DNA of 63,997 nucleotides, the filler included, from Perkinsus olseni (Eukaryota), in NCBI GenBank assembly GCA_013115125.1. It is 4 parts of 4 records of this genome, joined end to end, with 100 filler letters (N's around TTAATTAATTAA, not from the genome) between each part and the next. Parts side by side here need not be neighbours in the genome. Positions count along the whole stretch, not along the records: positions 1 to 16,720 come from JABANN010000673.1; 3 more parts are not named here. One strand, given 5' to 3'. A program made the translations under genes and the position numbers. The first letter of the stretch is position 1, and every line of letters begins with the position of its first letter. The notes beneath the pieces were generated by a model. The model was not told where the DNA came from and made no database searches. It saw nothing but the letters and a program-made list of their open reading frames with translations. This document shows positions 1-26,221 of the stretch, piece by piece.

Positions 1-1042
1 ACCTAGTTGGGCTAAAAACAGTCGAGTTAACAGCGGAAGCATGAAGTACCCTCAGGTGTGAGTTAATATTTAATTTGAATAATTCAACTGAGAGCAGCTG
101 ACATTAGTGGGTAATGTTGAATTTGATTCACACGAAATTTGGCCACAAATGTTTGTAATATAGCTCAGGCGTGCATATGTTAGCCATTATAGGTTCTTTC
201 TCGGAAGACAGTTAGTTATTGGTATTGTTGGGGAGAAATCTGCCATGTTAACAATGATTCATGAGGCATAAAAATATATAGAACCGGGAACTGATGAAAG
301 CCATCGAAGAAACTATTTTTTTGAGTATTAATTTGAACGCAATCACTGACATGGTTCGACGCAAGAATCTTGAATCATAATTTACAACTCGTATGTGAAT
401 GAAGGTTGATACTCGTATATTACAGTAGCGTAAGTCGAGAAAAATTCTCTGAGGGTAAGCAGTACTATTAGTGGCATTGCAGTAACTAGTCAGCAAGAGT
501 GAGACGTCGATACGAAATTCGCAGAGATACTGATGTTTGTCATATTAAGATTTTTCAACTTACTATCGATACAAGGTATCACAAAGGTATTATGACTTTG
601 AGAGATAATCTGTTTATCTGACATGTATAGTAAAGTTAGTAGAACGATCCACAGGACTTAAGATAATCTGCGTTGTTTACTCGATGAGCCTGACAAAAAA
701 AACAATTCAAATACGTAGGACGTGTTGTTGGACTGATACGCATAGTTGATGGTTATTAAAATACTACAGTTTAATATTTTAATAAATATGATGCGTAATA
801 TTCTATCATCAAACCGTTTAATTCGACCGAAAAGCAAAACACAAACAACAACTGTTGATAGAATAGCTTACGCACACGATTTCAAATTGAGAATCAGCAC
901 AAATCCGAGTTTAAAATCAAGAGTAAGTTATATCGCTTTGTAATGCCTTAGTTTGTAATAGACTCTTGAGAGAAACCTCATCTCATTTTTCTCTTAGGTT
1001 CGCATAGAGCTCAGATTCAACATTTATATCAGATTAATATTA

Positions 1043-2544
1043 TCAGCTATAAGCTACGTATACATGATTGGTTGCAGAAAAGTTAGTATATTTTCTAGAT
1101 TCAGATGCTAGAGAAAGAAGCTTAACCTTACTTTGTCTTCCAGAATCAACTCGATTCCCATCACCTTCAGTATGACGAGTAGTTCCCTGTCCAGAAGAAC
1201 GAGAGTCATCTCTATGGACATTGTCTTCTTGAGAACTCTGTTGGGCTCCTGTATTCTGCGAGTTGTTGGTAGCATTTCTGCTTGCCGACGATGAATCTGA
1301 ACCGATTAATGCTATACACATTATTACATAATGGATATAAGTTAGATTTTGTAATGCAGGATAATAAGAATATAATAAACGAATGGGTTGCGATATGCGT
1401 GTATAAAAATGTAGCTCACTCAAACAATTTTCATTTCTCTACGAAAATCAACGTATATAATGATAAGCCCAATACCAATTAGTTTATGGGGATACATGGT
1501 GTAATGAAATTAAAAAACTTCTGACAAAAGAAAGCCGACTAAAAAAACAATTGTCATATTACCTTCAACATTTCCATCAATAGGTTGAGGATCTACTGGG
1601 GAGAATTTAGCGTGGTTAGCTTTACCCTCATCACAATAGTTGGGTCGTAAGTCCACAATGTGAAACACTCTGGCTTCGGTCAAAGTATGATCTTCACCTT
1701 CCGTAGGGGTTTTGACCCATCCAGATATATCCCAAGTATGAATATACTTCATCACATTGTTGCAACAGTTCTTAATCTCTAATAAGTCGAAAGATCTCCA
1801 CTCATTTTGCTTCAGGACACTATGCTCAATGAATACTTTCGTAAAGCGTAAGCCGCTAACAATCGAACCATTGATTGAACTATAATCGACAGCATCTCCC
1901 ATTTCAACAGCGGTATCAAGATCTGCCTCGAGAACAAATCCCGGCTTGCTTGTTTTCACTACGCATCCACAGTGAGTAGACCCTGAAGTTAAAGGTAATC
2001 GATTACAGAGCGAGCCTCCGCATGACATATTTAATCGAAATGATGAGAGAGATATTTGAACACGGGGTAGATGAAAATAAGCAAATGACGACGATTGTAG
2101 CTGAATAGGTATAGTAGGCAATTGTATAGAAGGATTATATTTGAAGAAGGGTTGTACGACACGAATGACACTTGTCGATCGAGTATCATCAAGGTACTGA
2201 TTGATAAATCGAGGCTCGATCACCACTACAACTTCACCAACAGAAAAGCCAGGTTTTTCCGGTACCAAAGTACGAGTACTTTCCGATGTTCTGGAGAAGA
2301 TCACGCAGCACGACGACGAAAGAAGATCAGATAATAAGAACATTCTGTCATATTCCGCTACACTTTGACTAGGTCTAGTAATACCGCGTCGATATGTGAA
2401 GAGAGTAGTCTTGAAGTTCTTTTCACTCCGCCTGATGTTCAGCAGTCTCATAGGAAGCTTGCAGCTGTCACATGATCCTCCTCTCAATACTTGTTGAAGT
2501 GAAATTGTTTTATATTTTTGAACTTGCTGTGCTGTGAGAGACAT
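1043..2544 (-). CDS. Accessory protein of the Helitron-like element; Cys-rich globular domain plus spliced low-complexity Ser/Gln/Asn tail
   Basis: 344-aa ATG-initiated ORF (1510-2544) with CxxC, CGGSLC and HCGC motifs, on the same strand as RepHel. Donor GAAG|GTAAT at 1562 and acceptor TTCAG| at 1297 join it in phase to the 1043-1423 ORF. The 3' end is uncertain. Confidence 0.6.
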
Positions 2545-2845
2545 AAAAGAATGATAGATCCAACTTATTGACCATGAATTTTAAGTGAATGTATTTAATA
2601 TACTTTCGGAAGTGATTTCATAAACGGTAAACTAGAACTCGATACGTTTTATCATCCTTTATATAAAAAACTCAATAAGTTAGTTAAACTATCCTGAAAA
2701 ACATAAAAACGACGTAGCAAACAGAGGATGGCCTGCTTTAGATAGGTCATCTACCCACGTCATACGCAATTTCGGAGCGATAGAAGCATGGACTATCCCT
2801 ATAAAGATAAATGTACGCAATTAAGTCACACTCGGGACACCGACG

Positions 2846-3530
2846 TCATATAAATTTGAAAGAAGACAGTTTAGTAAAGCTGAAAGTATTAAAACAACAA
2901 TCGTGGCCACAGTGCTCATCCACTTCGCACTGTGGCCACTCTCCCCTGTTATTAACGCAACACATTGCTCGGTAAGAATTTCTTACTAAGAAAAACAGCT
3001 TTAATGATAAAATGTTACCGATAATATCTTCATCCAATATTTCTCCAGAATTATTGTCGAGATACTCATTTATGGAAGACCTGATCGTTTTTTAGTATTG
3101 AGCTTTGGATTACGCAACGATTTGCATATGATGTGATCAACGAGGTTCTCATAGTACTACTCGAGCCAATCTGAACATCTTTAAGAGTACGAAGGTATAC
3201 TTGTTGCCAAGCATCTTCACACTCATTATTGATATCTTTGAGAATTATGTGTTTAGACGTGACCATAAGCCAGTGGCTAATACCCAAATGGACAGGAACC
3301 TCAACTGAACCCACTTAGGTCTTTCGGGCGAAGCATCACTGATCATGTTTGTGATTAGAAAGCTTCAACCCGAGCATAGGCTGATGTAATTATTCGTCAC
3401 GTCAGAGCAGTACTGCATCTTAAAAATTGTTGATCACAAATGATTATGAAATCATAATATGCAATTCGGCTAGTCACAAGTCTTCCATCCATGAACCATC
3501 GACTGTGCCGGAGAAATGTGTCAGATAAAG
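2846..3530 (-). pseudogene. Degenerate Ulp1/C48 (SUMO-protease-like) cysteine peptidase
   Basis: VPVHLGISHWLMV (ORF 3066-3314) resembles the C48 His motif PxxLxxxHW. WPQCEVDEHCGHDCCFNT (ORF 2846-3037) resembles PQQxNGxDCGxxxCxNT. The pieces are separated by stops and frame changes. Confidence 0.35.
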
Positions 3531-3767
3531 AATATCACAAATACTATATTACAATCATAACAAGAGCTGAGCGTTATAATGGGGAATAATTATGAAACAA
3601 CAAACAGATAACTTCAGATTATGTGTAATATAAATACACTTTTGAGAAGAGTTGATCTCTTCAACAATATATTTGAAGGTGGACTTCCACGGTTTACTCG
3701 TGATGTGTTAGCTGGCCGTTGTGTCTTCAACCATAGGACCTGCACTGAAGTAACTACAAAACAATCT

Positions 3768-6700
3768 CTAATCGATTCTCTGATGGAAGACGAGTGCTCT
3801 ATCCGAATATTGAGATACGATGTATCTACCAACGTCTAATATCTCAGCAAGAGAATCAGTCGGGCGGCGAAATCGTTTCCACATTCGCTCAACAGTTAAA
3901 CGATGATATTTACTGTCAGGCGAATCAAATCCTGTAATGAGTGCTGCACAAAACCATGGAACTAAAGATGGATCTTTTGTTGATGAAGAACCTTGTAAAC
4001 GANNNNNNNNNNNNNNNNNNNNNNNNNNNNNNNNNNNNNNNNNNNNNNNNNNNNNNNNNNNNNNNNNNNNNNNNNNNNNNNNNNNNNNNNNNNNNNNNNN
4101 NATCCTGTAATGAGTGCTGCACAAAACCATGGAACTAAAGATGGATCTTTTGTTGATGAAGAACCTTGTAAACGATTATGTTCTTTTAAACGTCTCGATA
4201 TACAAGTGGACTCTCCGATATAAGTAACTGATAAGAAACGTAAACTTATTAATAGATACACACATCCCCCAACTGACTGAGTATCTGGCAACGGTAAAGA
4301 AGATAAATGATAAGGCCATTGACTTGCGAGTGAGAGAATCATATTCGACGTAGCAATGTTCGCGGTACGGGATACAACACTATGTAGTATTTGTGAGATA
4401 TAGGCATCATATTGCTGAGGTTTACGTAACAATTGTCGGATCACAGATAATATTTCCATTTTATCACCCACTAAGGTAATATGATCAAGTCTTTGAACAC
4501 GCGAAAAGAGAGTGTAAAGTTGTGATCGAAGCCACAAATGATGCTTACGATCAGACAGACTAAGCTGTGCACATATTTGTGGCAGGGTATTTCCCATAGC
4601 GCGGTGAACTGTTACCGCGACATAAGGTTTGAGAGGATATTGAAAACGTTTAGCGAGAAGGCCTTTACGAATATAGAGTTCCCGAGCTGAACTAGGAAAT
4701 GAAACACATAGGCTACGCCAGCCAGCTAATTCATAATCACCGTCTTCTGGCAAGGATCTATTACCAGGAGGTGAAACGAGGATAGTTACCCGACTATATT
4801 GATTGGTTGGAATATTTGTAATTACACATAACTGGCCTTGAGAATATTTTCGATCGGCAGTGTCGTTTTGTGTTAGTCTCATTATAGCGCCTCGATATAA
4901 GAGTAGATTTTTTGGCTCCAAACATTTTTTATCAAGATAAGCTACAGATTCCCTATTGGCATTGTTCCACGAGACGCCCCCAGATGTACTCTGAATGTCA
5001 AAAGCTGTGGAAGAATGAAATTCATCTGGGTGGAGACTATTCCTGATACTTGACTCTCTTTCTGCAATGATTTCCTGTTCGGCAACACGCTTACCAACTA
5101 CTCTCAGAACAGTACTAGGTACATCATCGAGAGACGGAACGAAATTACATCTGCTATTGATTATGGAACAGTATTCATCAATGAGTTGCGCATCATATGG
5201 CAGATCCAATATTCTACCGATTTCGTTAATGCGTTGCAAGTCTGGATCACTTGCAGATCTTACATAGTGCTCTAAGACCTGCAATCGGAACATTGTTAGT
5301 ATTAATGGCGATACTAACAAAGGCTGTCCAGTTACAGGTGGTAATTGGATGGGATCCATACTTGACAGCAGCAACAAACCGCCATACGGTAAATTATTGG
5401 ATCGAATAACGCGAAAACACCTATCAAGAACGGTTATCAATTCAGAGCTAATCAAGCCTAATTCTTCAATACATAGAACGTCAAGATGACGAAGAAACGC
5501 AATTTTGTCTGGATTGCGTCCAAGAGAAAGTATGCATCTCTCAGTCATTCGATCAACGTTTATGGATGAGTTCCCTTCAAGAACAGGAATGGGCAACAAG
5601 GCATGACAATGTACCCCTCCGAATTTTACAGAAGTTTCCGAAGTCAGACTACTAAATAGAACCGAAAGGCCCTTACTAATACAATATATCCCAACAAGTG
5701 TCAAGAGGTGGGTTTTACCCACTCCCGGCCCTCCTGTTATGACAGGAAAGCGCCGGAAGCCGAAGAATCCGCTAGCATACTCATCAACGTAGTGTAATAA
5801 TGCACTCAACAGCAACGATTGTTCTCGTGCTGCTCTTTCAGGAACTGTAGTGGAATACTGTATAGTGGGTATCCAAGACAGAGGATTATCTCTTGTTGCA
5901 CTATGCAAATCTGCTTCCGTAGGGAATGATAATCTAACTTCACTCAAACATGCTTGAATAGTAGATTCTTTTCTTTCTTGAAGAAGCCTCTGCACTTCTG
6001 CAGTAGCTCGATCTCTTATCTGGGATAACAGAACACCTGGGATATCTGTCAAGATTGCCGTCTCATGTAAGCCATTGACTAAAGAATCGTAGGCTGCAAG
6101 TAGGTAACGGTCGAATAACTGAGTGCCTCCTGAAGGATAGTATAACAGTTGTTCAAGGACATACCTACGTAAGACGTGTAATATTTCGTCATCTTGGAGC
6201 GCTTCGTCAGCGTCCCATTGTAATATGTTGGAGTTTGCAAAAACATGCAATATCGACGGCTGACTGAATAAATCTAATTCAGTCGAAAACCGACCAAAAG
6301 ATAGAGCTAGATGTATAAGAAATTTACACTGATTAGTTGGAGTTATATTACTCGATACTATTACGCGTCTCTGCATCGTTCTTACTAATCTGGAATATAG
6401 CTTCTGATAACTCTCATGCTGTGGATCTAAAAGTGGTTCAAATAGGTTATGTAACAAATTATCAGCAACGTAACTATTGGCAGCGGATGTTTGAGGAGAA
6501 TTTCTTATATTTCGTAAATATTCGACACAATCCTGTATAGCATCTTCACATATGAGGACAATATGGTCTAGCATATCAACAAAATAGGTTTCGTTGATTG
6601 ATCCTTTAATATACCTCAGTAAGTGTGACGACTCTATGAAATCACTAACGGATTCACATGAGTGGTTTTTACCTGATGGTATCGGATATCTTGCAAAATA

Positions 6701-9700
6701 TTGAAAGTAAAGCTCTGGTGAGTCGAATAAAAGTAACTCCGGGGGACGAAGTGAAAAAATTGTTATCTTATCATAACTTACTTTCGATGAAATTCTATCA
6801 TTATAAAGAATACGTTGTGATCGTGTGTAAAGTCGCCATGAAGGCAGATTTAAACTTTCTCTTACTCGCAAACATTCCGGTTGAGATCCATGAGACAAAT
6901 CTGATTGAATACCAGACTTTGAAAAATACAGAGCACCCGTTCGGCTTTCGAAAGGGACAGTTGGTAAATGTATAAAAGTTAAATTAGTATACCAAGTTTT
7001 CAAATTCAATAGGTGAAATACCATCTCAGTAAATGGTGTGATACGCCCAAGATCCTTTTTCTTAGACTCCTGTAGAGCATGTCTTGAAGGATATTTTGAG
7101 CCTTTTAACTGGCCAATGTGTAATTCTAAGCATGGTTGGCCATGTGATTCGTTGACATCATAGGGATTTACGGAGGCCACTTTATCTACAGTGATTGTAG
7201 AATCAGGACTTTTAACTTTCACAAACATAGCAGCTTTAGCTTCAGCTGCGGCGATGTATTTTGCTATGTACCGGCTTCTTCTATACCGATCACAATATAA
7301 CAAGTTGCACTGACTACGATGCAGTGCCCATAAATGACTAGATGTTGGAACAAAATGTTCATGGCTGTCCGCTGGATAATAATATTTGCCTCCAACCATA
7401 CTATCATTCCAATAAATGTCTCCAGTTGAGACATCTACATGGGCAAGCCCCAAGTGGACTAACAACTGTACTGCAGCTTTATCATGATCTGTGATGTATT
7501 CCTTGAATGAATATGCTTCAGATGCAGGATATAAAGGTGTTCTGCATTTAGTTTCATTACTATCACTGGACATCCTATGACACCGAAAACCGGCAGCTTC
7601 GCAATCATGCTGCTGGATACGAGTAGCAGCATCTCGTAGATAACAATAATCAGCCTCAGATTCTATGAGTCCGATGCTCATTAAATATTCTTTGTTGTTG
7701 AAAAGTCTGGAGCTGGAGCATACTATTCTGTTCAAAGAGTCAGCAGCTTGTGCTCGACTCTCTTTTACTTTGATCAAACCATGACTATGTGGCAAGTTTC
7801 CACTATGGCTTTGCCATTCTTGTCGGTACCACACACTATCTATCGATCCTAACGGTTCTTCAGGACTCCGTAAGATATATTCCCAAACATATTTTGATGC
7901 TCTTTCACTTGAACGAATAAGTTGAACAGCAATTGATAAATCTGTCGATCGTGATACATCTGTATCACTATCAATACAACCTAATGATTCAGCCTGTTGG
8001 AATATAGGCGATATCCCGAAATGCGAACGCATACTGATTGTATGCGTGTAGAAGAACTGTGGATCGAGCTTAGTGAATGCAGATAATTCATTGATTCTAC
8101 GTCTAGAATCTACACTGTCAAAGCTCATGGCACTTTCAACATTATGGTGGGTATAATAGCCAGTGAGATGTTCATACCCGCGGGTTTGAACAAGTCTTGT
8201 GTCTGATACCCGGAGCTCCAAGTTAACAATAGCATCAAATGCATGGGTAACATATCGAGGATCTGTTCCGGTCAAAGATGCTCCATCTTTGATTCGAGAT
8301 CGAAGCATTTGATCTATCCCTGCATATCCTAATCTCCGATTGTCTTTGGCATTGGAAAACAAAAATTGAGGAATAGCACCTGGGAATAAACCATCTTCTG
8401 CTTGTGCATAGAATATGGACGGGAAAGTGTCAGCTTCAAAATTAAGTAAGGGAAGACACTTTCCTGGATCTGTGGAAACATAATGTTGAATGAACCGCTT
8501 TTGAGCTAGGGAACCCTTGATTTTCTTTGTTTTTCGTTGTAGCAATTGGCTATCTGTATTGAATATGATATGTCTAGGTATCGACTGTAACTCCGTGTGT
8601 GAATCACTATAATTGGGGAGGAGAATGGCGGAATCCGTGTTATAAACATACTTCAAGTCTGTAGAATATGAATCTGTGGAGAATAAATCACTAGTACTTG
8701 AAACATCACTATTTGCAGAGCTTGCTGAATCTCCATAAGACGTGCTAGACTCTGACGGAGACTGCAAATCAGCGCATGGAATCGACTGATCAAAATTCGA
8801 TACTGTAGAGCTATTTTGAGTAACGGAGATCGATGAAAAGGAGTACTCCGAGGAAGGACAAGTTCGGATAGAAGAACAGCTACCGGTCGAAGATTGATCA
8901 TCTAATTTGTCCGTTACAAAAGGTGGAAGTGTTTGCTCTCCTGACCTGATAGACGACGTGTGTTTTCTACATAAACAGTTGGTACAATGCAAATAACAAC
9001 ATTTGATGTAACCTGTACGATGACACCGGGTACTTCCTAACAGCCCGTCTGTCGTGCTACAACAGACTAGTGATTTACATTGACTGAATAATAGCGGTGA
9101 CTTATGTAACTTACAGTATAATGGGGATTCATCTACTATGTCACGAAGATAATCAATCTTGTATTGCTTGTATGTCTCATACTGATACTGTTCGTAAATA
9201 AGGAACTGGCATCGGCGAAGTATTTCGTTTGGTATACTTTGTACTTCATCTATAACAGGGGTTGTTGAAATACAATGGGTAATATATCCTAGACGAGTGA
9301 AAGACTGGAAATAACATTCACCGAAAAATTTTGTTTGATTATCCTTATCATAACTATCACGTACATATCCAACACATCTCCATTTGAAATCTTTGTTATT
9401 ACAATGTAGCTCTGACGGAAAGTTTTGTAATCCAGCAGATCTAGATCTGCAAACGAGGATAACCCTGACATCATTTCTGAGTGTTGGAATCACATATGAC
9501 GATATATCTTGGCTGGGTAAAAGACGAGCAACGTGAACACCAGGTATCGTTCCTAGAAGATGAATCAACTTATACTGACTACGGATATCATCCATATCAG
9601 CAGAAGCAGCGATACTGGTCTGAATGTCATATGGTTTTTGGACTTTAGCATAAGGGTTATGTCTGCCTAAAGCCCTCAAATTAATCGAAAAAACTTTAAC

Positions 9701-12189
9701 AGTTAAATATCGTAAGACATGCCCTCGCCACGTCTCTGATATGCATGTAGTAGCAATATCAGATAGTGCCCCCCATAAATAAGGTACACCAGACAGAATT
9801 GTAGCGAGACCCCAAAATAATCTTAAGTCTTTTTTTAAATCGTCCCTTGTTAATATCTTACGCGAAGAAGGAATCCCAGTTGATACACACTCAAGTATTC
9901 TCGGTAACCACGGTAAATTAATCGTTATGGATATAGTGGTAGAGTCATCGATCTTATGTTGGATCGTATGAAAATCGGTAAATATTCCACTATATAATGC
10001 TTTGCGACATGCTAATAGATTATCAACATTGAAACGAGTAGCAGATTGTTGGCATAATATGACTTTTTCAACTTCTGCTGATGACAAACGTCCTCCTTGC
10101 AGCATATCATCTACAACTTCTTTAGTCAGTTCACCTGTTCTCTGTAAATGTCGTAACCTATAATGTACATCCTCTCTACATGCTATCTGTAATCTTTCTG
10201 ATTCAAATAGTTGGGCTGATGTAACATCCCATCTTCTCCTGTTCTGAAGCATGCAAGAACTGAGACCACTATAGGATCCAGTGACACGCGATACTTCATA
10301 TGCATTGACATTATATTTCTTGAGGAATGGTTTAACAATCTGAGGAGCCAAAACTAGACCTCCTAAACGATCACTTGTATGACAAGGTCTATTATACTGG
10401 ACAGGGTTATATGCAACAGCTACATGTCTCATAGTACTCCCATGACAATGATCTTTACAGGTCAGGATGCAAAGTCCTTCTCTTTCGTCGATCACCAGAC
10501 AAGGTCCTATTTTCCACTTCTCAAGGAATATCCAAGACTTTAGCCAGTCATATCGGGCGGCTGCTAGGTAATCGCGATGAACTTGATCACCACGTAATAG
10601 CAAGCCAAGTTTTTGCATCGATGCATACTGTCTAACTAAGGCTCGTTGCACACTCACAAAACCTGCATCTTCTAAGAATTCCTGAGCTCCACAGTAGCAA
10701 CGGACGCGTGCTACACATTCTTCGTTTAAAGCTCTTCGTAGCTCAGCACCTTTCATAGTATTTATAGCTTGTAATAGTCTTTGACGTTTATGTGTGAGGT
10801 CTTCGAAACAAGGAGCAGGATGTAGTAGTGTTACGTTTGTGAAATTTCTATGGAACTGTGATCGAGAAGGTAACCATGCTACACGCAGCTCGAAAGGAAT
10901 CCATTCCCATATAGGCAAGAAGCCTTCTATGACCATAATGTATGCAAAAATACTTGGCCAGGCGACACTCCATACATTCTTCCAAACAAGAGTGTTAGAC
11001 GAACTAATATAAACATAGCACGACGGACAAACAGCATAGGACGCAGCACCTGCGCCTTTTCGTAAAAGGACATATTTTCGTTTAATAAAAGCATTATCAC
11101 GAATCTGTTGACATTTGAAAGGATAAGATATAGTAGATGAGCGAAGGCAATTTTGACAAGTTTGTTTCAATTTATTTATGTATAAGTCGTTAGTAATATT
11201 ACAAGTAATATATTTTGCATTCCCAAATACGTCAATAATCTGGATGACTTTCTCTCTACTACACGAACTCTCAGAATAATCAATATTACAAGTATGCTTT
11301 TTACTCATTTCGGCCTTTCTACTCTCCAGGTTACAAGGAGCATTATGTGTGCCAAATTTTTCTACAACCGGAATTTTATCAAAGCGTGCTGACGAACTTC
11401 GTCGACTCACGCTACATCTTACACATGTACCATCCTTTTCCAAAAATGTTCCACAAACAATACACTTGGCCACTGAACCATGTTTTCGGCTCCTTTTCGG
11501 CTCATCATACCGTACACGTTCCGTAGTGACATTCCTAGTTATTGATGATGTAACTGGAACAGAAAAGCAACATCTTCTACAATGACTGTGAAAGAAAAAA
11601 CCCACTTACCAGGATTTGCCAAAGGATTGGAAGTTCTTAAACTCGCATCTCCCCTCGATAGTACCCTTCTCAATACAACATAATGGCCCGCACCAGCTCC
11701 CGCATTCGTCGAACTTTCCCCCACATGACTGTATTCGTGACCAACAAATACTGGCTCTCGCTCCCTGCCACCCCTTATTCCCTCCGGAACATACACATCT
11801 ACAGTTGGCGGAACGTTATGCGATGATTCCTGCCAACTTATATAACCAATGGGCCTTTCAATAAGTTGACATAAAGTATATTGGAGTACCGGTCTGGCAT
11901 CATCTCTCAAAGCAGCTTCCACAGCGCTCTCAATCGTTCCGCCGGCGTATCCCCAATAATCCGCTAAGAAATCTTCATCCAGTTCTCCTCGACGCACCAA
12001 ATCCCCCATATGATTAGCCGTAAGTTGATGTACGAGCCGACCTCTCTCTCTATCGTCAGTTAATGTTCGTTCTTCAACGCACGAAGCAATTACAGCATGG
12101 AAGTAACAGTTACCATCCCCTGCAACATTTCTGAAGAACTCTAAAACTTGCCCATCTTCCAATACTTGATGCCCATCTGGAAAACACAC
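3768..12189 (-). CDS. OTU-Rep-helicase-GIY-YIG fusion transposase (~2,730 aa; exons ~12189-11610 and 11553-3768 after collapsing the 74-bp overlap around the N gap)
   Basis: OTU: VAGDGNCYFHAV...GHYVVL. HUH Rep motifs: FFYTHT (~8040-8056), EWQSHSGNLPHSHGL (~7776-7819), YIAKY (7256-7270). Helicase: GGPGVGKT (5711-5734), IEELG, DPIQLPPV, RFQYPL...TVHRAMG, QLYTLFSRV. GIY-YIG: GCVYLLIS...TYIGES...RRLKEHN...PW...ITGF...VERMWK. A GT-AG intron at 11609-11554 joins the two ORFs in frame. The true start may lie in an upstream exon. Confidence 0.88.
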
Positions 12190-13244
12190 AAACGTGACAT
12201 TTCCAGAATAATAACAATTCGTTAATAAAAATCATTAACCAATTATTAAGAACAAACGCCGTTAAACGATTAATATCCAATCACACACAACCCGATAATA
12301 TCATCTGAACTAACACCATGAAAATCTATTGTAGAAGTTGACCGTTTTGATCGAGAATATACTTAAACGCTATTGTAAATAAATTATCACAGTAACACTC
12401 TTCAAGCATTTCAGACAGAAAGAAAATCCTCATCTTTTGAACCATCAGTTATAACTCCCAATGAGGGCCCCCATCTATGCACTACCAATCCTAAGGTCCC
12501 GTTGAATATGTGCAGCATGTCGCCGTAAGTAATCATTCCATTCTACTGCTTTAGCACTTCTCTCCGCAGGCTCCGCATAAAGCAACGGATTAGCTGGTCC
12601 ACGCGATACGTTGACAGGTATCATGGAAGTATACTCCAACAGAAAAATCTGCCATAAAGTTCATCCATACTATGAAAATTCGTCGAGAACTCAAACGTTT
12701 GGAAAATACTACTCAATCATGTTCTCGTGACATTACAATCAAACAATAAGTCGCGTGTAAGTCCCATACCATACCATATTATGATGGGCGTATGCAATTG
12801 ATAAAATTACACTCCATCACCTTTACTCGCTCAGACTAGTCAATAGAACAACAGTAAATCAGCCATGAATTAACATTCAAATTTCACTTAAAATTTTCTA
12901 ACAACATGCATTCCACAAGCCCTCGTCAACATTGCTCGCATCTACTTTACTCAATCTACAACACGGTAGATTCGACAGCAACGCAAATAACTCAACTCAA
13001 CTCAATAACCAGAACTGAAAAGCTATATCGATCAACATGGCGACCGCTTTTACACATTATCTTCGTAAGACTATATTACGTATAAGCAGCGACTACCTAA
13101 GATAAACTTGCTGTGGTGATCTAATTACAACCACCCCCAGCTACATACAAAACTTGAGCGAATTTCAACGGTCAATTCGCGAGAACGTGCTAATCGACGA
13201 GCAATAGCGTAACATACAGTTGACCATGGAATTTGCGCACGCCC

Positions 13245-13273
13245 GGGCGGGGACCCCTCCCCCGCCCTTCTAG
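13245..13273 (+). other. GC-rich hairpin + CTAG, candidate transposon terminus
   Basis: GGGCGGGG (13245-13252) pairs with CCCCGCCC (13260-13267), followed by TTCTAG and GTTTTT. Confidence 0.5.
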
Positions 13274-13339
13274 GTTTTTGACACTAGGGTGCTTCACCTA
13301 GAATAGATCACAGTAACTCTCTCACGAGATTCTTTGTGA

Positions 13340-15150
13340 AGATATGGGAATCTTAAGAAGAGCTTCCATTGCGGTCGCGACAGTACTTACAATAGCAATG
13401 TTGGCAATGTTATCTGCGGCCAGACGATGAATAGCGGGTGCTTATCCTACAATCACGATCGGGAGCTGCCCTGCGCGCCCAGGTCTGACCCGGTCTACTC
13501 TGTCGACCACGAGGACTGCCAGCAAAATCCCTTCGAGATAGGCGGGATATCACAGGACGATACATTCTCCCGACACAGAGGTCATGGACACCACCGGCAG
13601 CAGGGCAGCTCGACGCTGCTCCCTCCAGGTGTCCAACTTTCCGATGCCATCGCATTCGATGCGGGCGCTGCCTCCAATACTGTTACACTACACACCCCTG
13701 GACCAGTGGTTGTGTGCTACTGTCCCCTGGCCGACAGTCAGGGCTGTCGTGATGCCACACTCTGGAGGGCGCCCTTGCGGTGAGGGTCTCACGCCAGATG
13801 AGGCCCTATACAATATTCTGTCAGGTTCACCGTATCCGGACCGACAGGGATAAAGGAATTTATTTTCTCGGCCCACGTCCCCGTGCGCTTCGAGCTGGAA
13901 GGTCACGGGCTGTCATCTGCCCCTGGCTACCTCAGACTCATCCAACCAGCGGAGAATTGCAGCTCCAATGACGGTCGCCACTTAACGAGTCCTCCTTCCG
14001 AGAAGTTGGCTTCCCTCAAGCAACCCAAACACGGGTCTCGGAAATCTACATATCGGTTGCCCCGACCATTGCTATCCTGTCACTGATGTAGGGGGGTCCG
14101 AGAGCAACGTCCCGCTTCAAGGTCGTGATGCGGGACATGTGCGGTAGGGGTAACGCCGCATGGCTGTTGCTTCGTACCGCCACACTGACAGGTGCGACGA
14201 AACAACGACAACTGTGATTCTGTCTACATCACCATGGACTCGGTCATCTCGGCATCTACCATCAAATTTAACGGCAACCTGGACTCATTGAGTCCGACTC
14301 AACGATGGCGACGTAAATTGGAGCGTCCCAGCATTCTGCACGAGCGACGGCCTCAGATCATCTCCCTCGGTGACAACATCAACCCTGGCGACCACATCTC
14401 CGAGGAGGAGTTCGACCTGGTGAAAGGATGGGCTAGGTGCTCAGTGAGAGTCCAACGACGCCGATGGTGTGTTGATACGTATGCCGGTATCTCCGGCTTT
14501 TATTTTGTCGGCAACCCTGTCACAGTGATGGCTGACGACCCTGCCACAATGACTATCCCTGTTGGATGGTCCCGGAGCCCGGCCCCGCAGGCCCTCAGGC
14601 CATGGCGACTCTCCCTGCTCAGGTTGTGGCTACGGATAGTCTGGGTCGTGCTGGGTATTGGTATTCCCACTCATATGCGGCTACTAAGGAGAAGGTCGTC
14701 AGTAACTCCCCCATCACCGAAGCCGAGCTGTGCTATTCGTACGCTCAACAGAATGACTACCACGCCCATGTAGCCTATCAAGAGTGCCTGTGGACCCCTA
14801 CCCGCAGCTCTCAGGTTGGCCGTGTGACCTTCGTGGACCCTCCGCAAATGTCGGCGTCGATCCACCTCACAGCTCGGCAAGTAGAGGCGAGAGCACCGGT
14901 AGTCGTCAAATTCCGAACGGGCGGTGACCCGGCAGCCAACCCGATGTACGGTCGGCGCCCAGGTGACACCCAACTCATAGTCCAGGTGCTCGTGCCGTTT
15001 ACCGCATGGATCAGTCCAAGATACCTTTTTCGCAGGTACAAGATTCGGTAGTCTTCGACTTGCTAATCTCGACCGATGAGGGCTTGACCTTCGAGGAGGC
15101 CACTGCGGGAGGTGAGAAGCTTTAACGTCAGCTTGTGTGACCAGTAACGA
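13340..15150 (+). pseudogene. Frameshifted fragment of a large cysteine-rich alveolate-type secreted/surface protein
   Basis: Protein-like segments in successive frames (VVVCYCP...GC...W; FELEGHGLSS...YLRLIQPAENC; ISGFYFVGNPVT; VGRVTFVDPP) broken by stops and frameshifts. GC-richer than the adjacent element. Confidence 0.35.
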
Positions 15151-16720
15151 CACTACCAAGATGTCGTCGGCGTATAGTCATCTTCGTCCTTACCAAATTT
15201 CCGGAGAATCATAAAATAACTGCGACTTAGACAACAGAAATAATTACCTTCTAGGTCGCCCTTGGATCCCCTAGGTCAGACCTGAGGAAACTCAGGTCGA
15301 CGGTGAGATTTTAGGGGTGGCTAAGATACTTCCAAAGTGTGCGGTGCACCTCCTCTCGCCACGTTCAGATATAGATTTCTCGGCGAATCGAGTGAGTAGT
15401 GCCAAGCAGTCGGCCTGCGGGCAAGTGATCAGGGAGATGTGGACAGATCATCCCAAGGGCTTTCCAATACCGAAAGGGTGAGTGGCCGGGGTAGCTGCGA
15501 GTGTAGCGATGAGTGCCACCTCACATACTCTTGCTTGGTTGCCTCCCCTCGGTCCAAGCTTCCCTTATACGTCGTGCTGTACATGGTCGATTCGCCACGT
15601 TCCTCAGCACGAAAGGCGCTTCCGGGTGTCACGCCAATTCCGCTGCGGTTTTCTTAGTGTTAGAGTTGTTAGTAGAGCCGTCCAGGTTCGGCGCGGCGCC
15701 AATGTATATGCGTACGCGTATGAAGTTAATCGATCTTTACGAGTTAGCTATTCTCTTAGTTGCCCCTTTTTCATATATTGGCTCTTTCCGGCCTATCGTG
15801 TTCGTCAATCGCGGACTGGTCCTACTATCGTTAGTGCTCCTACGACTCCCATAACACTTAGTGTGAAGGCCTGAGCATTCTGCAGCAGTTGGCTCATGGC
15901 CCCGAAAGGTCTTGCATAATGATGGGACCTCAGCCCCGATGGGCTGCAACCGTTTCATGCAGCGAATAATGGGTGGGCGAGATCCGTGCGTACCTGCGCG
16001 AACACGCCCTCCCCAGATAGCTATAATAATAGTGTTACAGATACCAATAGTGTTACACAGTAATAAGAGGTGGATTGTCATTTTAAATGAAATCTTAAAT
16101 GACTCATTTAAGATATATCGAGGGTGTCGATGGTGGTCGTTGGACAAGTTAAAATCTCCAACTTGAAGGTATAGTAACAGTGATAGTGGATATATAGTCA
16201 CCTAATAGCTTCAACAGTGTTGAACCAGCTTCAGCCGCTGTGGTTATTGTCAAAGGCGTGGGTGGAGTTCAAGTCGTGGAGTCGACTGTTGACTCGATGG
16301 GACTTGCGGAATGAATCACCAGATAGCTTCGAGTGAGTTGACCGAACGATCGTTGTGGTTGTCGGAGACGTTGGTGGAGTGTGATTAGCGACAGTGTTGT
16401 GCAGTTGGAGCTGTTGGCCTCGCGTTGGGAAGGCTTGGAGCATTCCTTGAAGAGAGATTAGTAGAGAGAGCAGAAAGAGTAACCTGGTGTTACACCAGTG
16501 GTGTAGATATATGTGGTGGCTGGCCGTCGTGAGGAGCTCGCAACTCGAAAGTTAGGGCCGGCTGGATAGGTCGCAACAGTAAGCGACGTTGCTGATGTCG
16601 TTGTCAGAAGGATGTTGTTGAGCTTGCATTGGAGAGGTTTGGGGGGTGAGTGACAACTGGTACAGTGACAACTGGTACACCCCCGGGCTCGTACAGGCTT
16701 TATTCGGTACTCCTTTCATT

Positions 16721-16890: not shown

Positions 16891-17260
16891 GAAGGAGAAG
16901 AAGACTAAACAGACCTAGTGTTATTATAATAAGTGCTCTTCCTGTATCCAGCTTCTTGTTGTTGTGTTGTTTACAGCTGCTGCTGTTGCTGCTGTTGCTG
17001 CGTTCCCACTCAATGATGACTAGAACAAGAACAGTTGATCTCACTTGATCTTGAAGTTGATGATCATAATGATTCATTCTTATCATCATCCACAGGCATA
17101 TAATCGATAATGATAGTGATGATGATGTTCATCGTATGCATGCAGATCATCGCACTTTATATTATCGTCTGGTCTTTTATCACTTCTGCTATAAACAGCA
17201 TGCAGGTCATCATTATGTCGTTCAGGTGCTGCTGCTGCTGCTCGTCTGTAATGCTTCCCC

Positions 17261-17297
<37 letters not shown>

Positions 17298-19835
17298 GTC
17301 GCTGCTTTTTATTCATCTTCACCACCTCCCTCGTTCCCATACTATTCTCTTTGAAGAATTTCATGGTATTAGAATCACCGCATCCCCGATCATGACGACA
17401 ATGTCGCGACGGTATTAGTTTATCATTACCCTTTAATAAACGATGTGTTCGCTTCATGCACTTCCTCTCCTCTTCTTGCTTATGTCTCTTCACTTTATCA
17501 TTTTCATCATCCACAATAACCCGATTACCCCTCTTATCATTATTTGTGTCCCCAAAACTACGTAATGCTTTCATTCGCTTTTCGTTATGACAATCGTCTT
17601 TGAGATTATATGAAAATGGTAGATGATGATAGGGAGGTAAGGAACACCGCAAAGCGAGTAGGAAGTCTGATAATTCAACAGTCATGTTGTTGTTCAACCT
17701 CTCATTATATTCATAGTACTGTGTAGCCATTAACTCTCGAATGGCTTCAATGCTATCACCTGAAGCTGACTAGTAGCACCACAAAAAGCATGATAATGAC
17801 ATTACTGCTGCTGCTTGTTGTTGTTGATGATGATGATATTACTACCTGTGAATCCTGATAGATCCAATCCCAATGCGAGATCTTGTATTGTTGGAACACC
17901 TTTCCGTGTTATATCTAATAAATTATAAATGTTGGTCCATGTGGCTGGTGTGGTGTTATGATGATGATGATCAGATGCAGAACATTTGATGTTCTCAAGA
18001 TGATACCTGAACAATAATGTTGCCGATCAATAAACCCCTCCCTTACCAAAGTTTCGTTAACAGTGTGGATGATTTCCTCCCTGATGAGCATCTAGTTCTA
18101 CCGTTGTCACAATTCATATTATTATTGTTATAATATTCATCAGCCGGCATAAGAGACGAGGTATTGCAGCATCTTCGGCTCCTCTCCTTGACAATACTAT
18201 TCATGCCTAGCTCCATTTTGGTAGTCTCATATCCGGTAGCATTATCATTAGCATTATCATTACATGCATCATCATCATCATCATCATCATCATGGTGGTG
18301 GTGGTGTTGGTGATGATGCTTGTGGCCGCCGTCTTCACGTGATGCACAATCCGAGAGTGATGCACAATATCGTGCAGGAGACAGCGATGATGATGATGAT
18401 GATGATGCTAGTGTACACTTTATTATGGGTTTCTGAGTTATGGTTGTTGGTTGTGTAGTTGCTCTTTTGTCATTATCATACCGTTCAACCTGAGTACCAT
18501 TAGGTACTCGAGTAATGTCAAGCCCAGCAAGTGGTACCTTATCCATGCGTATCGGAGGTATCTTGTTTGAACATGAGCTTCGGGTTTGAATATGGCATTT
18601 CTTCTCCAATCCCAAAAGATCATTGTTGCACATCATCCCGCCCCTGGATTCCGTTAATCCGTCTCCCTGCACTTCCCTTGTTTCCTCTATAGCTCCCTTG
18701 CCACTATCACTGTTAATCTCCATCAACGTTGTGGTGGTGGTGGTGGTGGTGGTGGTGGTGGTGGTGGTGGTGGTGTTAGTATTATTATTGCAGTTATTAA
18801 TACCATGTATGATTTGATTGATATGTCTCATCTTGATGTCGATACTCTTTAACAATGCATCCTGTTGTGATAGTATAACATCCACTGCATTCATACCATC
18901 ATATCGGTGCCTGTGGTCATCATCATCATCATCATGAACATCATCCTTAGCGTCGTCGTCGTCGTCGTCGGTGATGATGATGATGGTGTTGAAGCTATTA
19001 GTATTCCTATTATTATTATCATCATTATGTTGTTGTTCTTGTTGTTTGAGAAGAGTTCGAACATTGGCCACCATATGGGTATCATTGAAGTTGCGTCGTG
19101 GTCGTCTCGATGTTTCTTCGCTTGTTGTTGACGTGAGTGAACCTTCATCATCATAATGATGATGATGATGATCATGATCATGAGAACAGTACTCTATTGT
19201 ATTACTGTCATGGTTTTTTTTATTATTATCATCAGATAGTATCTAGTACCACTACTATTATCCGTCCATTGACTATGACGACTATGACGACTATGACGCA
19301 CCTTTTCCTCCTCATTATTCTTCTCCTGCTGATCCTGTTGCTGTTCATTGTCTTCCTCTCGTATCAACATCAGATCCATCGAAGACGATGAACTTCCTCT
19401 TCTTCTTTGTCTCCTCTGTTTTCCATCATTCATTCTTGTATCATCATTGGTATATAGATAATCTTCATCTGGTAGTAATGTTAGTGATGGTATCAAGGGT
19501 AATAAGAGATGAACAGCTTTTTCCATATTCCCCATCCTCGTTGACAAATCATCATCATCATCTCCCTTCCCCTGGTGTATTGATATCTTCGATCCCAATA
19601 ATGTTCCATCTCCCACCGCAGCTGTTGTTGTTGATCCCTCACTTTCTTGCTGCCTTTCCCTTCCTTCGACTTGGGATGTTGCTTCTTCTTCTTCCTCTTC
19701 TCTAGCTATCAACAATGCTATCGCTTCCGCCGTTCGCGTTAAAGTGAATTCTGTGAATCCCCCTCGCTGCTCCGATAGTATCATTCCTGCGGGGTAACAG
19801 GATACGACAGGATCTTCTTCCATCAATCACAGCAG

Positions 19836-19876
<41 letters not shown>

Positions 19877-20994
19877 GCAGTGTATCATTACTTTTCAGCT
19901 CTTCTTCCTCGATTCCATCCGTACCTTCAGTTTTCCCTCCGTCCACTACTACACCATCATCACCATCATGATGAGTAGAAAGTAGTAGTTTATACTTGAT
20001 AGGATTGATAACTTTCTTCGGAAAGAGTATTACACCAGCGGGATGTCGATTAACCTCTTTACATAACATATTGTTCACCATGAGCTTGGACTCTAGTATC
20101 TAAATATTAACAACTACCACTACTAACAACTACCACTACTAACTACTACCACTACTAAGTACCACTACTAACAACTACCACTACTAACAACTACCACTAC
20201 TAACAACTACCACTACTAACAACTACCACTACTAACTACTACCACTACTAACAACTACCACTACTAACAACTACCACTACTAACTACTACCACTACTACC
20301 TCTATGTAATGATACATGTTAAGGCATTCATCTCTTTGTTTCAGTACAAGATTCTTCAAGGAGTTAGCCATCACACGAACTTCATTAGCCTCAGACGCCA
20401 ATGCACGGATTGTCTGATGATAATAAGATTCACACTTATGATGATGAAGGGCTACTCGAGGGAGAATATACCATGGGGAGGGTCATTCAAGGTGGTGGTG
20501 GTGGTGGTGGTGGTGGTGGTGGTGAACTACCATCATACTTCGTCTTGTTCCTGCAACATTTGTTTAACTATCGAACTTTCTCTTTCGTAATCGTCATCAC
20601 TCATCATTAGTTTATCGTCATCATCGACATATATATTATGATAACTCTCCTTCACCAACCTGATCATCATGCTTATCAAAATAATCATTATCATCAGACA
20701 TAATGATCTAGTACTGGTAAGCTTCTTTTACAAGCTTTCTCACAACTCTCCCTATTTCCCAATCCCTCTTCAACCTGTTCATGCCATCGTATGATGATGA
20801 TGATGATGATGATGATGCTTGGCGTCTATCATCATCACCACCACCGTTATCATCGTGGCAGCAACAGCAGCAGCAGCAGTAGGTCTCCCTGGTATTTGAT
20901 GATGTCTCATCTGTTAGCTTGCCCGTAACCGCTACATCATTGCGATCTATAATAGTATCGGTAGAGCAGCATTGATTGATGATAGCTTTCAATC

Positions 20995-21062
<68 letters not shown>

Positions 21063-23434
21063 ATGGTGGTGGTTGAGGTTTTCTAATAACTGCTGTTGCT
21101 ATTACTTTGATGTGAGCATAGCTTGCTTCATTTTATCGTCCCATTGTTTAGTTCTCAGCTCTCTTACTTCCACCATCATCTCCTTCTTTATTCCATCCTG
21201 TTCCCTTATACGTTTCTTCAACTCTTCCAAACTCCTCTCCAAACTAATTACCTATACGACGATACCGATAGTATCACCACCACCACCACCACCTCAGCCT
21301 TGTCAACGTGATACTACTTTTTCTCGCATACTCTCAGAACAATCAGTGTTGCCGCTGTTCTTGTTGCCGATGATAATTCTACTTATCCCTACATCATCCA
21401 TACTTCTATCATCATCATCGTGCTTGAATCGTCGTATTGCCGTATTATCGTATTGCTGGGAGACGGCCGTTTGCGATGAGAACAGACCCCGTTCAAATTC
21501 ATTCCTTCTTTGTTTAACACTAGGTCTCAACTCCTTCACTGATGATGATGATGATGATGATGATGCCATCTCCTCATCATCATTATTTTCGTCCTTCTTT
21601 ATCAAGTTATTGTTGTTGTTATTCTCCTCATCATTTTGCTCCTCTCTCCTCGCCGTTCCTAATGTTCTTCTTGCTGTTCTCTCACTATGCGGAATAGCCT
21701 CTGCGAAGGACGCCATGTTAGTATAAGTATGAGATAGTATCGTCCGTGCGATAATAACAATATCATCATTATTTATTCCTGATCGTCCTCTCTCTCGCAG
21801 TTCCCTTCCTTCCATTTTTGATGCATGCTGCTTTTCCTTATCATCTGATACCATATTAATGATTCTACCGTGAAAAAGAAGGACTAATGACAATGATTAT
21901 AGGAGAAGGAATGAGAACTCGCAATTGTAACATATTATCATAATCAGTATAATGATCGTGATAAAGTGATGATTAAGAAACACAACGATGAGTACAAGGA
22001 TCCTCAAGACTCAGTAGTCTAACACGCCACAATGGTAGTAATTAAACTTGATCATAAAATAGCGAATGATGATGATGCGATGTTGAGTCAACATTGTTGA
22101 GGGCTAAATGATAATAAATAGCATCATTTCCATCCTAGTGTATGATGATCATAATGATGGTCTCCTGTTCACAATAATTACCGTAAAAAACAACACTGTT
22201 GGCGAGGTGCTGCTCACAACTGCAACAGTCAAAATCATCGAAAGATCACGGAACCTCACCTTTTAACCTGCGTGTACTATGGTGAACATCACCACCATCA
22301 TCGTTGTTATCGTTTTTCTTTCTGTACCCTGTCTTGTGACAGCAGATGTTCATATTATGATAAAAAAAGGAAATGATGACCGACGATATTATCATATAAC
22401 ACGGTAGTATGATGAGTAATAACAACATATTGAGTACATCATCAAATGCTTGTCGTCGTCGTCGTCGTCTGCTGCTGCGTCATCATCATCATCATCATTA
22501 TCGACCATAAGTTCCTTCTACCCCTCCTTTTTATGTTATTCAGCCTCTCCGAGCATCATGATTGTGGTATCGAGTGGGGATGATGATCATCGTTGTGAAG
22601 GTGTGAGTAATTATCCCCTTCTATGTGTACGGGTGTGTATCGAGTATTATCACTTCTACTATGATGATGATGATGATGATGATGATGGTTGTTGTTATGA
22701 GTGTATCATCCCCTCCTCATCGAGGGAGGGGGGGCCATAATGATGGGGGTTATGAAAGTAGGCAACAACGGTGATGGAGGTGCTCTTCTGTCGTCATCAT
22801 CATCATCATACGTTGTCTTATGTATATCATCATCACCATCATCCTTTCCTTTTTCTTTTCTTTGTTGTTTCATAATCTTATCTAAGGCTAGATCAGCAAG
22901 ACTTGTTCTCCTTCTCTCTATTGTTGTTTCATCATCATCATTCCTGCTGCTGCTGCTGCTGTCGTCCTTGTTATGTGGTGGTATTGGGAGGTGATGATGA
23001 TGGTATGTTCTACCATCACGATTCACTCCAATATTAATGACTTGAGTAGTAGTAGTGTGCCTCCTCCTCGTCGTAGCCTCCTCCTCCTCTTCCTCCTTTC
23101 TTCTCCCATCTCCATGATTCGTGTATATATATGGATCAGACCTGAACAGGACACTGATGATGATGATGATGCTGGTGGTGGTGGTGCTGGTGGTGGTGGT
23201 AATAGCATCATCACCTTCTCCTCCTTCGATTGCCCCATACTAAAGTGTCTTGGGCCCTCAGATCAGCCATAACAGCCAATCGTGCTCTCGATTGTTCAAT
23301 GAGATTGTTGTTGTTGTTACTATGCTTACGATGATGATTATGATGATTATGACCCTTCTTAAAACCGTTTGGTGAGTCTTCGTCTTCTTTTTTATGTTGG
23401 GGAGAATCAGCAGCCTTCACCACATTATCTAATA

Positions 23435-26046: not shown

Positions 26047-26177
26047 GATAAGGGCAGACAAGGGAGAAGAACAACAGTAACAACAAAAACAACAACAACG
26101 CCATTCCATGCATTTAGCGCCCGCCCTAGCGATCGATTACTTCGTCGGAGCTTTTAATTATCTGTGCATCATCGAAT

Positions 26178-26190
26178 ATGTCGGACTATC

Positions 26191-26221
<31 letters not shown>

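Follow-up and report, generated by a model that had tools for sequence, protein, structure and literature searches.

A Helitron-like element of Perkinsus olseni with a predicted SLX1-lineage GIY-YIG nuclease at the C-terminus of its transposase

The element and its genes

The window (the whole stretch of DNA analysed, 63,997 nucleotides with filler, joined from four records of the Perkinsus olseni assembly GCA_013115125.1) begins with a Helitron-like element, the features of which are collected in Table 1. Its largest frame encodes an HUH two-tyrosine Rep, a PIF1 helicase and a GIY-YIG domain, in this order; a single protein with a Rep ahead of a PIF1 helicase is what is expected of a Helitron-like element. 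All GIY-YIG motifs quoted in the initial annotation were found on the minus strand at 3768-4270. As assembled, these motifs are split over two frames by a run of 99 Ns (4003-4101): CVYLLIS...TYIGES...RRLKEHN...GSSST...PW...ITG forms the end of a 2,547-codon frame that reaches the N run, and ITGF...RLTVERMWK lies in a second frame to the left of it. The 74 bases flanking the run are identical on both sides, and in the DNA runs X1 and X3, each marked as a possible source of this DNA, one 13-kb contig joins 3928 directly to 4102, skipping 173 bases. The gap is thus an assembly artefact, which rules out a frameshifted or duplicated gene, and the frame is therefore continuous over 2,554 codons from stop to stop, just as the annotation had stitched the nuclease together. 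Run X3 has G for T at 4176, a change not present in X1, which, translated by hand, gives Thr in place of Asn in the HN motif; this Asn is conserved in 178 of 185 collected proteins and lies outside the five catalytic residues.

Table 1. Coordinates of the element and its features in the window
Feature	Position	Strand	Remarks
Whole Helitron-like element	7..13301	+	13,122 bases without the artefact; genes on the strand opposite to the termini; putative boundaries
ACCTAG hexamer before left end	1..6	+	putative target site; assembly contig and X3 contig start here
Right terminus	13245..13301	+	GC-rich hairpin 13245-13267, second stem, terminal CACCTAG 13295-13301
Rep-helicase-GIY-YIG open frame	3768..11605	-	2,554 codons without the artefact; Cys-rich N-terminal and middle regions
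HUH Rep domain	7256..8053	-	motif 1 8033-8053, EWQ...HSH 7781-7819, YIAKY two-tyrosine motif 7256-7270
PIF1-type SF1B helicase	4493..5734	-	Walker A 5711-5734, Walker B region 5456-5470, SRV motif 4493-4504
Predicted SLX1-lineage GIY-YIG nuclease domain, transposase C-terminus	3768..4270	-	five residues intact; without RING finger
Catalytic Tyr codon	4256-4258	-	first of five
Catalytic Tyr codon	4220-4222	-	second of five
Catalytic Arg codon	4190-4192	-	third of five
Catalytic His codon	4178-4180	-	fourth of five
Catalytic Glu codon	3888-3890	-	fifth of five
Assembly artefact	3929..4101	none	74-base duplicate and 99 N; identical flanks; X1 and X3 contigs
OTU-like cysteine protease frame	11539..12231	-	Pfam Peptidase_C65 E 0.0027, below cut-off; OTU in homologues
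Predicted 56-base intron	11554..11609	-	would bring the OTU frame in phase with the transposase; prediction only
Accessory ORF	1510..2580	-	344 aa from Met; probable tandem OB-fold, RPA-like
Canonical intron GTAAG...TTTTGTCAG	689..1130	-	spliced out in one contig of the RNA-like run, depth 2.5

The helicase matches Pfam PIF1 (E 1.7e-6), and a profile of its family matches solved Pif1 helicases as well as Helraiser, with bacterial and yeast Pif1 scoring above Helraiser. The window's Rep gave no match to Pfam Helitron_like_N, the cut-off of which is passed by 2 of 19 homologues and by 3 of 6 matches in this genome; the family's Rep profile aligns to HLE2-like (25.5 bits) and HLE1-like proteins, scoring somewhat higher with the HLE2-like than with the HLE1-like reference (one of each). 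Standard Helitron profiles fit the lineage poorly, and repeat annotation therefore probably overlooks it. Elsewhere in the genome, an 822-codon frame (C27, L051) has a Helitron-type Rep that scores poorly against the family profile, and represents a second divergent Helitron-like lineage.

Upstream of the transposase lies an OTU-like frame that shows a 48% match to the paralogue at C3183, where OTU and transposase share a single 2,746-codon frame; in the window, the two are probably joined by the predicted 56-base intron. In three relatives (P0015, P0030 and P0096), an OTU or Ulp1 protease domain stands after the nuclease instead of N-terminally. The accessory ORF has paralogues that adjoin other copies of the element and also a metagenome element (E 2.5e-32). 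It yielded no sequence match among solved structures, an Atlas lead of 0.77 and a model of pLDDT 44, the top matches of which are OB folds (Z up to 5.5). Because the model is poor, we treat the assignment as a lead only: the ORF probably encodes an RPA-like OB-fold single-strand binding protein. None of the sequencing runs is recorded as RNA; one that we guess to be RNA (the RNA-like run) covers 30 of 30 bins, with low depth over the element, and gives a weak hint of transcription from the element's gene strand.

Termini and putative target site

The X3 contig (13,128 bases) covers exactly positions 1-13301 and carries ACCTAG at both ends. GC content steps from 0.40 to 0.56 at 13234, near the right-end hairpin, and folding of the right end gave a z of -1.87, with 8 of 200 shuffles folding equally well. 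A first terminal pattern matched the window only, and DNA searches with the window's ends returned no close derivative. A pattern of hairpin plus CACCTAG, designed after three loci had been inspected, matched 6 places versus none for the reversed control. These matches reveal 1.08-kb non-autonomous units and head-to-tail junctions, some of them between different families, and each head-to-tail junction contains the hexamer once. Non-autonomous elements of 1.08 kb that have the hairpin-CACCTAG end and lie head to tail were noted on C1087, C1110, C1135, C703, C2000 and C2937.

In a blind test, in which two left ends served as the query with the hexamer excluded, ACCTAG was found to precede all three new junctions of related elements, against a background of 1.5e-4 per position. 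The flanks of two of these junctions are unrelated, and that of the third is only 8 bases long; at the C471 junction a decayed Rep of the family is present. Two further left ends, taken at GC steps, gave ACCTAG (C1103) and ACCCAG (C82). Overall, left ends follow ACCTAG and begin with TT, TC, CG, GG or TG, and right ends are followed by A, T or C. The simplest reading of these junctions is that the element inserts behind a copy of its own right-end motif; the alternative is that the element itself carries the hexamer as a terminal direct repeat. A target of six bases identical to an end of the element would set it apart from HLE1 and HLE2, for which AT and TT targets have been described. At six metagenome loci the ends showed no sign of the Perkinsus motif, and the hexamer could therefore be a local feature.

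Neither the assembly nor run X8 yielded a clean empty site: the paralogous gene at C857, homologous as far as the right boundary, is too diverged, and at 90% likeness X8 is missing the element together with its neighbouring host gene, and so provides no empty site. The contig depth of the element relative to its flank is ~2 times in X1 and ~4 times in X3, a ratio that we do not read as copy number.

The nuclease domain and its lineage

The initial annotation had matched the C-terminal domain to the SLX1 pattern of GIY-YIG nucleases and had listed Tyr, Arg, His and Glu as apparently present. The catalytic residues of yeast SLX1 are Tyr, Tyr, Arg, His and Glu (PMC8287910), and mapping of the codons places all five in the window's domain. 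The N-terminal half alone matches Pfam GIY-YIG with E 0.0016 and 19.2 bits, below the cut-off of 22.6; given this weak match, profiles were built from intact copies of the same genome. The match is not due to chance, as 8 other copies in the genome lie above the same cut-off. When a 73-sequence profile was compared with solved structures, five SLX1/HIGLE sequences ranked on top (52-60 bits), followed by bacterial UPF0213 (33-36 bits), T4 EndoII (16.5) and UvrC (12), and an 8-sequence profile gave the identical ranking.

Structure prediction, which the annotation had suggested as a check, was carried out with AlphaFold2 on the intact C1103 paralogue (pLDDT 96), not on the window's own domain, and returned an SLX1/HIGLE fold. 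This model aligned to SLX1/HIGLE with Z 11.0-11.7 and an rmsd of 2.0-2.3 over 101-103 of 114 residues, versus Z scores of 5.5 for I-TevI, 5.5 for a 5hmC restriction nuclease, 4.5 for UPF0213 and 4.1 for UvrC; with Foldseek, all 11 matches of the C1103 model at E<=0.001 were SLX1 or HIGLE. The closest viral models to the fold are giant-virus GIY-YIG proteins, and NCBIfam and PHROGs gave weak, scattered matches only. Profile bits and fold Z scores thus bear out the SLX1 pattern, with no other GIY-YIG subfamily scoring higher in either comparison.

We also considered the other types to which such a domain might belong. A Penelope type was rejected, as no reverse transcriptase family was found in the window protein or in 19 homologues, and a GIY-YIG homing type was likewise rejected, as no NUMOD modules lie behind the domain and both profile and fold favour SLX1. 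In the UvrC/homing lineage a conserved Asn is expected ~12 residues beyond the Glu, and in the collected alignment the 30 columns after the Glu hold no conserved Asn. It is by this C-terminal Asn that the UvrC/homing lineage is recognised (PMC1564403).

The domain shares with SLX1 and At-HIGLE the fold, including the C-terminal helix and strand, the Tyr-Tyr-Arg-His-Glu set and the RRxxxHN, T, PW, GF and ExxW motifs (PMC8287910, PMC9071465, PMC1564403). It differs from SLX1 in being fused behind a transposon helicase and in lacking the RING finger that marks orthodox SLX1 (PMC1564403): the window's frame stops ~40 residues past the Glu, and the median tail beyond the domain is 21 residues (best 150 of 460 relatives at E<=1e-10). 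Without a RING finger, the domain is SLX1-like rather than an orthodox SLX1. At-HIGLE is a RING-less SLX1-lineage domain as well, and cuts branched DNA without SLX4 (PMC9071465). Assignment of the window's domain to the SLX1 lineage is hence supported, by profile comparison and by the model of its paralogue.

The host has a separate SLX1 gene with introns, located beside asparagine synthetase (C3196, L021), an exon of which matches Perkinsus records at 95-98%; the element's domain is 27-36% identical to host SLX1. A recent capture from the host gene was ruled out, since the window's domain shares 61-64% identity with its helicase neighbours but 33-36% with Perkinsus SLX1. Of note, the genome also holds an intron-free MSH1-type MutS gene with a C-terminal GIY-YIG domain (C2924, L022).

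Conservation of the fusion

The genome search returned 12 matches: two in the window, eight with a complete domain, one that stops before the domain and one cut off by a contig end. All eight of the further copies with a complete domain, which are 23-57% identical to the first row, have Tyr, Tyr, Arg, His and Glu without exception, and the prospect, raised in the initial annotation, that the domain might be degenerate in other copies of the element did not materialise. In several copies in the genome, the upstream frames are broken. Among 27 homologues picked by their helicase alone, 23 carry all five residues, two have one catalytic substitution, one has a degenerate domain and one ends before it. 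Across 187 collected proteins, 150 of which were selected by the domain profile itself, the residues were counted in 183/183 (Tyr), 181/185 (Tyr), 181/185 (Arg), 183/185 (His) and 181/183 (Glu) cases.

With synonymous sites saturated, non-synonymous divergence from the paralogues is 0.24-0.29 for the catalytic half of the nuclease, 0.34-0.42 for its C-terminal half and 0.27-0.30 for helicase and Rep; the helicase and Rep rows of C82 are spurious, this locus consisting of the C-terminus only. The domain profile collected 460 clusters at E<=1e-10, a number that rises to 3,951 at E<=0.001. Upon inspection of the best 150, the helicase end was found directly before the domain in 105, 41 were too short to judge and four gave no match at the threshold. 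In 62 proteins, helicase distances correlate with nuclease distances (rho 0.39; distant pairs, rho 0.28; 0 of 999 permutations), the pattern that a single ancient capture would give; the nuclease tree is for the most part poorly resolved. Judged by sequence, the GIY-YIG fusion marks a large, divergent Helitron-like lineage.

The relatives include four proteins of the tunicate Styela clava (P0005-P0008) and metagenome sequences. A short relative, P0102, has its nuclease behind a D5 primase-like stretch instead of a PIF1 end, possibly reflecting a link to Polinton-like viruses or a chimeric gene call. Scans of viral and prokaryotic contigs gave no relatives, a blank that weighs little since few short patterns were used. 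Mobility is evident from young families among the relatives, the full-length copies of which are 92-99.7% identical on different large contigs, and from the non-autonomous copies with unrelated flanks in this genome; within the assembly, the family to which the window's element belongs lacks a second close copy.

These data bear on whether the nuclease takes part in transposition at all. It could be an active passenger with a non-transpositional role, such as protection of the element or its host from replication stress, or could do nothing more than process rolling-circle concatemers: Helitrons carry many captured domains without a known role (PMC11417382), one homologue has lost the domain, and head-to-tail arrays are present. 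Still, the in-frame fusion has been kept over a deeply diverged lineage under constraint equal to that of the core domains, and the head-to-tail junctions between mixed families represent insertions and not concatemers. We consequently deem a passenger role improbable.

Relation to other rolling-circle transposons

As in HLE1, the element ends in a 3' hairpin followed by CTRR; the 5' TC end and the insertion between A and T that characterise HLE1 were not observed at its putative boundaries. Neither the window protein nor 19 homologues contain an AP endonuclease behind the helicase or match DUF6570, the latter being the marker domain of HLE2 (PMC11417382), and subterminal inverted repeats with a TT target were not seen, the junctions consisting of a direct hexamer without T runs. 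A quick helicase tree separated 70 rows from four outsiders by a long branch (SH-aLRT 100), its references comprising only one HLE1-like and one HLE2-like protein, so that the trees are under-sampled. The tree and the ranking of bacterial and yeast Pif1 above Helraiser suggest that the lineage may be a third Helitron clade.

Among its closest parallels in organisation are the Helentrons (HLE2 subgroup b), which likewise combine a Rep-PIF1 transposase with a C-terminal fused nuclease, an upstream OTU domain, an RPA-like accessory gene and an occasional reversed ORF (PMC4067079, PMC11417382). Helentrons, however, have an AP endonuclease where GIY-YIG is found here together with no DUF6570 match, and they have subterminal inverted repeats in TT, whereas a hairpin and CACCTAG behind ACCTAG are found here (PMC4067079, PMC11417382); their Rep and helicase are only distantly related to those of the present element. 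Two lineages have independently fixed unrelated nucleases at the same position behind the helicase. In the open literature searched, the only GIY-YIG domain that we found in a Helitron-like element is that of HelenSM92, an HLE2 family of Sphagnum magellanicum, mentioned in one sentence and in the legend of Fig. S8 (PMC11417382); the recurrent-domain section of the same paper does not name GIY-YIG. HelenSM92, compared by description only, differs in its short inverted repeats and TT sites, and the passages on it name neither the nuclease subfamily, nor an in-frame fusion, nor how widespread the arrangement is (PMC11417382).

HLE Paramecium, described in 2026 as a third Helitron clade, also has a very long transposase that is more divergent than HLE1 and HLE2 are from each other, an alveolate host, variable ORF orientation and a right end (CCAA) that matches the flanking repeats (PMC13085455). 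It differs in transposase length (3,052-3,592 aa, versus about 2,200-3,100 here) and in targeting telomeric repeats, and the main text and readable supplements on it contain no GIY or SLX term (PMC13085455). Among the other HUH transposons, IS91 inserts in a specific orientation beside a short motif and Replitrons have short direct repeats at their ends, but both are without helicase and GIY-YIG domain (PMC10288648).

A different possibility is that the locus represents a virus-like or plasmid-like replicon (Polinton-like or CRESS-like), with the nuclease serving its replication. The best of four outgroups for the helicase profile is a helicase fused to polymerase B (103 bits, versus 92 and 69), giant-virus GIY-YIG proteins are the nearest viral folds, one Atlas neighbour cluster is viral, and the contig depth relative to the flank differs between runs. 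Set against this are the Helitron-type Rep, the hairpin-CTAG end, the introns, the non-autonomous 1.08-kb derivatives, the integration in large host contigs and ORF lists in which neither the element nor six metagenome loci have a capsid or polymerase gene, such that we consider a replicon very improbable.

A proposed role for the nuclease in transposition

In the Helraiser model, Rep nicks both ends and a single-stranded target, and the last step, the completion of insertion, is left to host replication (PMC4778049). By analogy with Helraiser, Rep would nick the left end of the present element, the helicase would peel off one strand, helped by the OB-fold protein, and the hairpin would trigger a second nick after CACCTAG, upon which a circle would form. 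Judging by the junctions, Rep would then cut the target DNA behind ACCTAG, the same motif as at the element's own right end, and this would be why copies stack head to tail. The motif common to target and right end makes it probable that the target is chosen by Rep.

Nicking of targets and resolution of intermediates had both been proposed for the nuclease in the initial annotation. Since the HUH domain cuts the motif at the 3' end of the element, and the target motif is identical to it, resolving branched intermediates appears the more likely of the two functions. Our preferred reading, which we regard with moderate confidence as the correct one, is that a structure-specific nuclease of the SLX1 lineage was captured at an early date, has stayed catalytically intact as the final domain of the transposase, and resolves branched intermediates. 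The tethered nuclease would cut the flaps, the forks and the loop opposite a single-strand insertion that peeling or strand transfer makes. Such cutting would let the event finish without host SLX1-SLX4, and the nuclease would fill the place held by the AP endonuclease in Helentrons. Speaking against a need for it, canonical Helitrons transpose without an extra nuclease (PMC4778049).

The nuclease could instead open the target, nicking duplex or branched host DNA so that the helicase loads and a single-stranded target is exposed for Rep. HUH enzymes cut single-stranded DNA only (PMC4778049), and the target must therefore be opened somehow; this is the role usually assumed for an accessory endonuclease, and wherever a long homologue has a domain match, the domain directly follows the helicase (best 150 of 460). 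Nevertheless, the identity of target motif and right-end motif points to Rep for the sequence choice, no DNA-binding extension is present (a median of 21 residues behind the domain), and SLX1-lineage enzymes prefer branched substrates (PMC8287910, PMC9071465), making target opening rather unlikely.

The element belongs to a barely described but widespread branch of the Helitron-like transposons that carries a nuclease of the SLX1 type and, in the present genome, has a putative target of six bases. Going further, the elements might together form a third eukaryote-wide rolling-circle lineage, with an obligatory SLX1-type resolvase, IS91-like insertion behind its own right-end motif and integration that does not await host replication, a joint reading that we put forward tentatively, as possible rather than probable. 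Such a lineage would be as far from HLE1 and HLE2 as those are from cellular Pif1, would possibly include the telomere-capping clade of Paramecium, and its active families would be natural site-specific integrases for cargo of >10 kb.

Flanking features

To the right of the element lies a spliced gene (13302-15370), the paralogues of which are 81-82% identical. In the RNA-like run one contig begins at 13097, still within the right end of the element, which may therefore provide the promoter of this gene. Another hairpin with CTAGGT motifs is found at 15247-15298, followed at 15658-15856 by a repeat of 200 bases. This repeat is dispersed in >25 copies that are 78-100% identical, reaches very high depth in the RNA-like run and may be a SINE-like or small-RNA family; Rfam gave no match in the window, this repeat included. 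Farther along, an AT-rich stretch of 4.6 kb (16912-21525) between (AAC)n and (GAT)n microsatellites has GACCTAGTGTTA at either end in inverted orientation; the stretch holds a 399-aa frame without a Pfam match and is possibly a TIR transposon. Finally, a RIO-family kinase frame of 578 codons was noted at 26130-27866, on a contig of 39-40% GC.
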